Source of the DNA: Promethearchaeota archaeon
GTDB taxonomy: Archaea > Asgardarchaeota > Thorarchaeia > Thorarchaeales > Thorarchaeaceae
Length of the DNA stretch: 32,000 nucleotides
Direction of reading: 5' to 3'
Assembly (NCBI GenBank): GCA_027031765.1
Contig: JALVPN010000110.1
Location: 60,990 to 92,989, forward strand
Numbering within the stretch: position 1 is the stretch's first letter; every line of letters begins with the position of its first letter. The notes below the pieces were generated by a model that saw nothing but the letters and a program-made list of their open reading frames with translations, searched no databases and was not told the DNA's origin. Below, piece after piece: positions 173 to 5,067 of the stretch. The translations under genes and the position numbers were made by a program.

Positions 173-280
173 TGGTGGGCCGCGCCGGATTTGTCGGCCA
201 AGCCCCCGTACTGGGATCCTGTGAACCGGCGACCACCGCACTGTCAATGCGGTATCATAGCCGGGCTAGACCAGCGGCCC
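173..280 (-). tRNA. tRNA-Val(GAC) with a 30-nt intron at 56/57 (intron 193-222)
   Basis: Minus strand reads GGGCCGC TG GTCT AGCCCGGCTA TGAT A CCGCA TT-GAC-AG TGCGG TGGTC GCCGG TTC[ACAGGATCCCAGTACGGGGGCTTGGCCGAC]AAAT CCGGC GCGGCCC A CCA. Removing the bracket gives a full cloverleaf with T-loop TTCAAAT and encoded CCA. Confidence 0.92.
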
Positions 281-3144: not shown

Positions 3145-3291
3145 AGTGAATCCCTCTAGTGTGTACATTGCCAGTGCCCGTATTGTACCGTCAGGATTGC
3201 CCCCGGGTCTACAGTCACCATGGCGTCTGCACCAGTCATATAGGGCTGACCCGTCCGGTCATGTTGCCTACAATACGACGAGAAATAGAAG

Positions 3292-3397
3292 TGGTGCCGC
3301 GGGCCGGATTTTTCGGCCGGGAGTCGTGACGAGCCCCCGTGAACCGGCGACGACACGGTCTTCAGCCGTGCGATCTCCCTGACTGATCTACCGCGGC
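3292..3397 (-). tRNA. tRNA-Phe(GAA) with a 29-nt intron at 56/57 (intron 3312-3340)
   Basis: Minus strand reads GCCGCGG TA GATC AGTCAGGGA GATC G CACGG CT-GAA-GA CCGTG TCGTC GCCGG TTC[ACGGGGGCTCGTCACGACTCCCGGCCGAA]AAAT CCGGC CCGCGGC A CCA. Confidence 0.93.
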
Positions 3398-3422
3398 TCA
3401 CTCCACCGACAAACTATAGACG

Positions 3423-3430
3423 ATATAAAG
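3423..3430 (-). promoter_or_regulatory. TATA box for tRNA-Phe
   Basis: Minus strand CTTTATAT, 26-33 nt upstream of the tRNA 5' end at 3397. Confidence 0.65.
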
Positions 3431-3625
3431 CTAGCGCATACGTCGGTGTCACACATACCGATGCGACATGGGTCTGACCTGCACATCGTGTCTGTGGTGC
3501 TATGTGACAGACGTTGTCTGACCTGCTACTGGTGTCCATACAGAACCGCACTGTCCCCCACATGGCGGGAGGTGCACCATACCATACCTATACCATGTCC
3601 AGTGTTGGTGTGGACTGGCTGTCAT

Positions 3626-4144
3626 TCAGCGCAGTTTGTAGTTCGTATAGCTTGCGATGACTGCTGTCACTATTGCTGCAATGTTGGCTGCTAGGGGATA
3701 GATGAACAACGAGTCGAGAAAGGCAAGGGTGGCAAGCCACGACGGGAGGTTACTGATATCAGATATCCCGAAGGGGACAAAGTAGACCATCATGAACACT
3801 GCGGTCAACAGTGCAACGCCGACGAATGGTGGGAGGTCTTCTCGAGACCTTGCAAGAGCGGAGAGTCTGTCAATCCATGACATCTTGCTCTTCTGTCTTT
3901 TGCGTCGCTTCTTCCTTGATGCAATCTCTGCCCACCTGTACATTGCCTCAGCCATGAGGACATACGCTCCTGCCAGGACTGCCGTGACACCCAGTGACAC
4001 AATCAGTTGCAGCTCTACACTCAAGACCTGCACGTATACGGTGGCATGCCATATCAGGGGCACCTGCACCAGTGCTGCTATTCCTATGAATATCATGACA
4101 AGTCCTGGCTTCTCATCGCGTTTCCACCTGACTGGAGGGTTCAT
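3626..4144 (-). CDS. Hypothetical multi-pass membrane protein (about 4 TM segments)
   Basis: 172-aa ORF with four hydrophobic stretches separated by a highly basic loop (SRKKRRKRQKSK). No recognisable family motif. Confidence 0.7.
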   Translation of the reverse strand: MNPPVRWKRDEKPGLVMIFIGIAALVQVPLIWHATVYVQVLSVELQLIVSLGVTAVLAGAYVLMAEAMYRWAEIASRKKRRKRQKSKMSWIDRLSALARSREDLPPFVGVALLTAVFMMVYFVPFGISDISNLPSWLATLAFLDSLFIYPLAANIAAIVTAVIASYTNYKLR

Positions 4145-4960: not shown

Positions 4961-5067
4961 TGGTGGACCGGGCGAGATTTGAACTCGCGACCTCCTCCAT
5001 GCCAAGGAGGCGATCTCTCCCGGCAGGCCCGGTATGCGGGCCCACAACCGGGCTGATCTACCGGCCC
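4961..5067 (-). tRNA. tRNA-Ala(GGC) with a 30-nt intron at 20/21 in the D-loop (intron 5017-5046)
   Basis: Minus strand reads GGGCCGG TA GATC AGCCCGGT[TGTGGGCCCGCATACCGGGCCTGCCGGGAG]A GATC G CCTCC TT-GGC-AT GGAGG AGGTC GCGAG TTCAAAT CTCGC CCGGTCC A CCA. The G3:U70 Ala identity pair is present. Confidence 0.93.

Follow-up and report, generated by a model that had tools for sequence, protein, structure and literature searches.

The tRNA-Phe(GAA) gene at 3292..3397 (minus strand) of the window, by which we mean the whole 32,000-nt stretch analyzed, is very probably a functional, single gene with a protein-spliced archaeal intron at 56/57, removed via a relaxed HBh′ motif by EndA and RtcB. The gene spans 106 nt, including an encoded CCA, and is the sole copy in the assembly. 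Its 5′ exon (3341..3397, minus strand, 57 nt) covers Sprinzl positions 1-56 with 17a and carries the anticodon GAA at 3363-3361; the intron (3312..3340, minus strand) is a predicted hairpin of 6 bp plus a short bulged inner stem; and the 3′ exon (3292..3311, minus strand) covers positions 57-73 as a 17-nt body at 3311-3295, followed by the CCA at 3294-3292. The original prediction, of a 29-nt insert at 56/57 whose splicing restores TTCAAAT, was borne out on both counts: the insert runs from 3340 to 3312 on the minus strand, and once it was excised ARAGORN called a 77-nt tRNA-Phe(gaa) with all stems paired and the T-loop TTCAAAT. The diagnostic bases of this tRNA are T16, A17a and C45. Neither ARAGORN nor Rfam reported the unspliced gene in raw scans of the window and of the genome, and relaxed ARAGORN settings on the sequence returned mostly noise. 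Upstream, an archaeal promoter-like box (3423..3435, minus strand; TATA core 3429-3423), of which a TATA-like version is kept in 14 of the 15 genes shown, the window gene included, is inferred to function as the promoter, while a pyrimidine-rich run 3′ of the CCA (3281..3291, minus strand) is the probable archaeal terminator. A 172-aa open reading frame (3626-4144, minus strand), with a weak Pfam match to SieB that falls under the cut-off, adjoins tRNA-Phe in most of the family loci tested. An 81-aa open reading frame at 3156-3401 overlaps the tRNA-Phe gene and was not counted as a gene.

At the intron boundaries, exon residues C51 G52 G53 U54 (CGGT, 3343..3346, minus strand) form the 5′ strand of a central helix H and the 3′ end of the intron (GCCG, 3314..3317, minus strand) forms the other; read as 3346-3343 against 3317-3314, all four pairs can form, three of them G-C and one U-G. 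A 3-nt bulge, UCA (TCA, 3342-3340), follows the exon strand with a predicted cut between 3341 and 3340, and AAA (3313-3311) follows the GCCG with a predicted cut between 3312 and 3311. Both predicted cut sites thus fall two bases 3′ of a helix H strand, as expected of a BHB-type motif. On the intron side, CGGGGG (3339-3334) pairs with CTCCCG (3323-3318) in a 6-bp helix h′, which with its loop occupies 3318..3339 on the minus strand. The helix and bulge sequences had all been named in the original prediction, which described the AAA as a second bulge; that part needs refining, because the exon-exon helix h beyond it is absent (0 bp, with C50 opposite A58). The AAA side therefore lacks a closing helix, which makes the motif HBh′ rather than strict hBHBh′, a class that we rejected for want of the outer helix. 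The first pair of h can form in only 3 of the 24 cases at 56/57 that we collected from the family. When inserts were base-shuffled 100,000 times, a full central helix together with an intron helix of at least 6 bp arose at the boundary in 0.012%. Two other classes were rejected as well: a self-splicing group I or II intron needs a catalytic core of more than 100 nt, against an insert of 29 nt with no Rfam match, and a split or permuted tRNA is at odds with two exons that lie collinear within one 106-nt gene.

Because A is the first base of the intron and of exon 2 alike, cuts at 56/57 and at 57/58 would yield an identical product, and residual pairing of G49-C65 and C50-G64, possible at a cost of 1.8 kcal/mol, would allow a different fold, a bulge-helix-loop in which the T-stem is partly kept. 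Removal of the insert by cuts shifted by one base, or from such a fold, would give the same mature tRNA; we nevertheless consider it quite improbable. The predicted position at 56/57 is fixed by the geometry of the motif, with its register of 4-bp helix and 3-nt bulge, and by the introns of relatives that start with G, where an intron-initial G and an exon-2-initial A permit only 56/57. We assign the tRNA-Phe intron to the archaeal BHB type, in its relaxed HBh′ class, with cleavage as a prediction.

A pattern search of family tRNA genes recovered 24 introns at 56/57, spread over the isotypes Phe, Val, Pro, Arg, Met and Trp, and a backwards control pattern had zero matches. All but two (22 of 24) are exactly 30 nt long, which makes the window tRNA-Phe intron one base shorter than the family form. 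In an alignment of 23 of them, the HBh′ structure pairs in 96% of cells against 25-45% for slid-register controls, with two-sided changes at all nine h′ pairs, and at exon base 51 the pair with the intron is C-G in 10 and U-A in 8, with no pair in the other 5. These figures overstate the covariation, because the search pattern itself imposed three of the four pairs in H and the sequences come from kin that are not independent. A rival pairing, between the end of the intron and exon 62-65, reaches 68.5% in the family alignment with zero two-sided changes; it is this pairing that the energy model favours in the free precursor.

Nearest-neighbour folding of the precursor placed the splice-competent form about 3 kcal/mol above the form with an intact T-stem and gave helix H a probability of at most 0.07 at 37-70 °C. 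When the other arms were held in place, the fold that keeps the T-stem and loops out the hairpin had a probability of about 0.9. Since the splice-competent fold is minor, either capture by the enzyme or co-transcriptional folding must be assumed. The 3′ strand of the T-stem is transcribed after the intron, and from the folding model we infer that the HBh′ motif is either captured by the enzyme or formed before that strand exists. The same dominance of the T-stem-intact fold could be read to mean that the tRNA works unspliced, with an enlarged T-loop, but this we find hardly credible. The elbow of a tRNA is held by the contacts G18-U55, G19-C56 and U54-A58, all of which would be lost if a 29-nt hairpin stood between C56 and A57; furthermore, conservation of the exon-intron helix would then have no purpose.

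To define the insert independently of the motif, we can turn to intronless orthologues: 60 complete tRNA-Phe genes, including that of the window, were collected from 86 family genomes, and 29 of the 60 have no intron. The spliced window tRNA differs by 3 bases from the closest of these (genome G072) and by 5 from that of G009. In the other 31 genes, inserts are found at 37/38, within the variable region, near 53/54, or at 56/57, 58/59 or 59/60. An intron at 56/57 is present in 7 of the 60, namely in the window genome, three genomes of genus g3, two of g6 and one of g15, to which two g11 genes with a second intron can be added; pairing is conserved in the 56/57 inserts of the other six genomes, from three genera. 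In g3 and g6 there are intronless copies as well, some of them with an identical T-stem, and gain or loss of the 56/57 intron has therefore happened on more than one occasion, as far as patchiness can be judged by genus labels. All seven 56/57 introns are found among the 27 genes with G52 and none among the 33 without it (Fisher p 0.002, in a sample whose kin are not independent). Outside the family, a pattern search of 400 genomes of the phylum, blind to genes with further introns, found no 56/57 intron in tRNA-Phe; its single match, in another family, was by eye not tRNA-like and was discarded. Judged from this distribution of sequences, the tRNA-Phe intron is dispensable cargo that was gained or lost several times in the family.

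Some further features of the relatives were noted in passing. Several have a second, decayed or truncated tRNA-Phe copy beside the intact gene, or a 5′ fragment only (L017:1501-1660 in G026; L033 and L034 in G006 and G031; L050, L051 and L055), and these decayed copies may mark tandem duplication or integration sites. In genus g6, tRNA-Phe genes (L013, L045, L047-L050, L052, L053) carry a 32-nt insert in the variable region or at the start of the T-stem, in which the exon word TTGTC is repeated at the ends and the splice motif is unclear. Thorarchaeal introns of about 30 nt occur at varied positions, many with a loop word like GATTTCC or GACTTCC (loci L011, L012, L016, L038, L101, L103, L119, L124 and L127).

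The dependence of the host on this gene was assessed by a census of its tRNA genes, which was made by hand, as automatic intron fitting mis-fitted class II and multi-intron genes. The assembly (2.95 Mb in 229 contigs, 95% complete, with about 5% missing) encodes 47 tRNA genes, which are the 46 standard archaeal isoacceptors plus Sec, each present once. BLAST searches of the assembly, for which the spliced gene, its exon 1 and its anticodon arm served as queries, found no second tRNA-Phe gene. Nineteen of the 47 genes are uninterrupted and 28 have inserts; in about 20 genes one or more inserts sit elsewhere than at 37/38, and in 14 the T-arm (53/54 to 59/60) is interrupted. Besides Phe, non-canonical inserts are found in Tyr, Asn, Trp, His, initiator and elongator Met, both Lys and all three Pro genes. 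The original prediction had reasoned that viability would depend on non-canonical splicing if the Phe gene were the sole copy, and from a single-copy tRNA set this is sound: because tRNA-Phe is single-copy, Phe decoding probably depends on such splicing. This dependence is a genome-wide condition, shared with about 20 other tRNAs, and is not specific to Phe.

An incomplete, fragmented assembly also leaves room for a different account, in which the insertion has turned the window gene into a pseudogene and the true tRNA-Phe is encoded in sequence missing from the assembly. The two Phe loci, or decayed copies, of some relatives would fit this account, as would the prediction that a fold other than HBh′ has the lowest energy. 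It is, however, very unlikely in our judgment: the exons are intact and fully paired, the promoter box and the synteny are conserved, the other 45 isoacceptors are all single-copy in the genome, and an insert that conserves the pairing occupies the same bond of the same gene in six other genomes of three genera. A functional gene with a spliced intron remains the reading that we prefer.

The census brought several observations on other tRNA genes of this genome (G000). The selenocysteine tRNA, a type known from some Asgard archaea, is encoded at C107:10649-10739 on the minus strand. In the window, tRNA-Ala(GGC) at 4961-5067 (minus strand) carries a 30-nt D-loop intron (5046-5017, at about 20/21) with a central helix of 4 bp and an intron helix of 9 bp, and ARAGORN and Rfam give only a truncated gene there. 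Elsewhere in the genome, the Pro(GGG), Trp and Tyr genes (C40:79460, C217:23219 and C40:175276, all minus strand) have 29-nt T-loop introns at about 58/59 that share common ends and appear related by eye; their hosts all have a GGGAG T-stem strand.

The genome also encodes candidate splicing machinery. Two EndA paralogues are present. The catalytic one has the residues Tyr, His and Lys (Y/H/K) and a CSL loop whose lysine aligned to K44 of Aeropyrum pernix EndA, an alignment made partly via the 75%-identical P0002; the gene itself is truncated at a contig end. The second paralogue lacks the catalytic His, which fits a structural subunit. Almost all of the closest named homologues of the EndA are from Candidatus Thorarchaeota, at about 70% identity, and by these names the host is probably a Thorarchaeote (Asgard). 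RtcB is encoded as well. In A. pernix, EndA K44 and its loop confer broad specificity and cleavage of relaxed motifs (Hirata 2011, PMC3241643), and the A. pernix enzyme cuts an HBh′ intron (Kaneta 2018, PMC5829648); the L1 loop of EndA is conserved in Asgard archaea (Kaneta 2018, PMC5829648). The host is accordingly predicted to encode an EndA able to cut relaxed motifs, together with an RtcB ligase. These observations provide the basis for a model of tRNA-Phe maturation. We predict that the upstream TATA box drives transcription of the precursor and that the intron folds as a hairpin, whose GCCG 3′ end would pair with exon 51-54, displacing the T-stem, to give the relaxed HBh′ motif. An (αβ)2 EndA with the CSL/L1 loop would then cut after C56 and before A57, and RtcB would join the exons, upon which the T-arm could refold.

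In the window, the tRNA-Phe intron has a companion. The original prediction had called its 56/57 position the same as that of another gene, which we identified as tRNA-Val(GAC) at 173..280 (minus strand), with a 30-nt intron at 56/57 (222-193); ARAGORN and Rfam left this gene unreported too. The window Val(GAC) and Phe genes have identical T-arm sequences and the same insertion bond. Among the 24 other family Val(GAC) genes read, only one has a 56/57 intron, and none has the Phe-like C51 of the window gene. The two window introns are 53% identical overall; their cores are 43% identical (shuffle p 0.31), no closer than shuffled sequences, and recent copying between them is therefore not supported. 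No further copy of the tRNA-Phe intron was found in the genome, and its best matches elsewhere reach 60-67%. Closer pairs occur in relatives. In G067, the 56/57 introns of Pro(CGG) and Arg(GCG) are 87% identical and those of the two Arg genes (CCG and GCG) 93% (L115:1496-1547 for Pro(CGG); L130:1495-1546 and L130:1967-2018 for Arg(CCG) and Arg(GCG)), and in both Arg introns the central helix contains a C-A mismatch; similarly, the Val(TAC) intron of a g8 genome and a Phe intron of g6 are 80% identical. If a transposed intron family is recognized by identity of 80% or more between introns of different tRNA types within a single genome, the window Phe intron falls short of this, whereas the Pro(CGG) and Arg(GCG) pair of G067 reaches it. 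Such resemblance across isotypes hints at copying between tRNA genes, while the shared form could also reflect convergence under a common structural constraint. We can speculate further, and tentatively, that a single stereotyped unit underlies the 56/57 introns of Thorarchaeaceae, mobile between tRNA types by homology-driven gene conversion and able to settle only at hosts with G52-G53-U54, although we think this rather less likely to be true than not. The proposed unit has 30 nt, made up of 1 base, a 9-bp stem, a 5-base loop, a 4-base helix strand and 2 bases. If it exists, the window Phe intron would be a diverged member, one base shorter, and the C51 of Val(GAC) would have been taken from a Phe-like donor.

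Comparison with known systems places the gene in an established class. The review by Yoshihisa 2014 (PMC4090602) lists the 56/57 position and relaxed HBh′ sites for Crenarchaeota, for example in tRNA-Pro(UGG) of Pyrobaculum islandicum, and cites Marck and Grosjean 2003 and Sugahara 2007 and 2008 for non-canonical tRNA introns. The introns of Thermoproteales and other Crenarchaeota share with the tRNA-Phe intron described here the 56/57 position, HBh′ sites and an (αβ)2 EndA; what differs is the host, an Asgard archaeon, and the isotype, Phe. Intron transposition among tRNA genes of Thermoproteales is attributed in that same review to Fujishima 2010. There, like introns are found across isotypes, and the common T-arm and insertion bond of Val(GAC) and Phe are reminiscent of this, whereas the two window introns are only 53% identical. 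Among Asgard archaea, 92-95% of the tRNA genes of complete genomes are interrupted by introns, frequently non-canonical ones (PMC11291895), and Thorarchaeota SMTZ1-83 is among the genomes with predicted tRNAs in Kaneta 2018 (PMC5829648). A 2026 preprint on 90 Asgard genomes describes concentration of introns in the T-arm, repeated gains, BHB enrichment and a two-subunit EndA, with little copying between tRNA types (1.5% at 80% identity, for its focal classes); its focal lineages are Jordiarchaeia and Atabeyarchaeia, and its main text does not name Thorarchaeia. The intron burden here (28 of 47 genes) is lower than in those focal lineages as given there, and the 56/57 introns with 80-87% identity in different isotypes of this family stand apart from the little cross-type copying that the preprint reports. 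The EndA of this genome has the same loop type as the Asgard (αβ)2 EndA with its L1/CSL loop (PMC5829648, PMC3241643); in the EndA literature examined we found no report of an assayed Asgard EndA or of an assay on a 56/57 substrate. The 56/57 position, HBh′ cleavage and intron-rich Asgard tRNAs are thus already published, and the tRNA-Phe gene adds one more example.

For the annotation of this organism, the finding matters because standard finders miss the gene, so that the genome would wrongly seem to lack tRNA-Phe. The precursor would lend itself well to assays of an Asgard splicing endonuclease, since its splice motif has to out-compete the T-stem of the tRNA itself. If the 56/57 introns do form one mobile unit, the family would show how introns can arrive in an Asgard lineage, by a route that the recent census did not reveal in other classes. 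Finally, Thorarchaeal tRNA-Phe is a handy locus for the study of tRNA intron gain and loss, since a single orthologous gene displays at least five kinds of insertion site while half of its copies are intronless.
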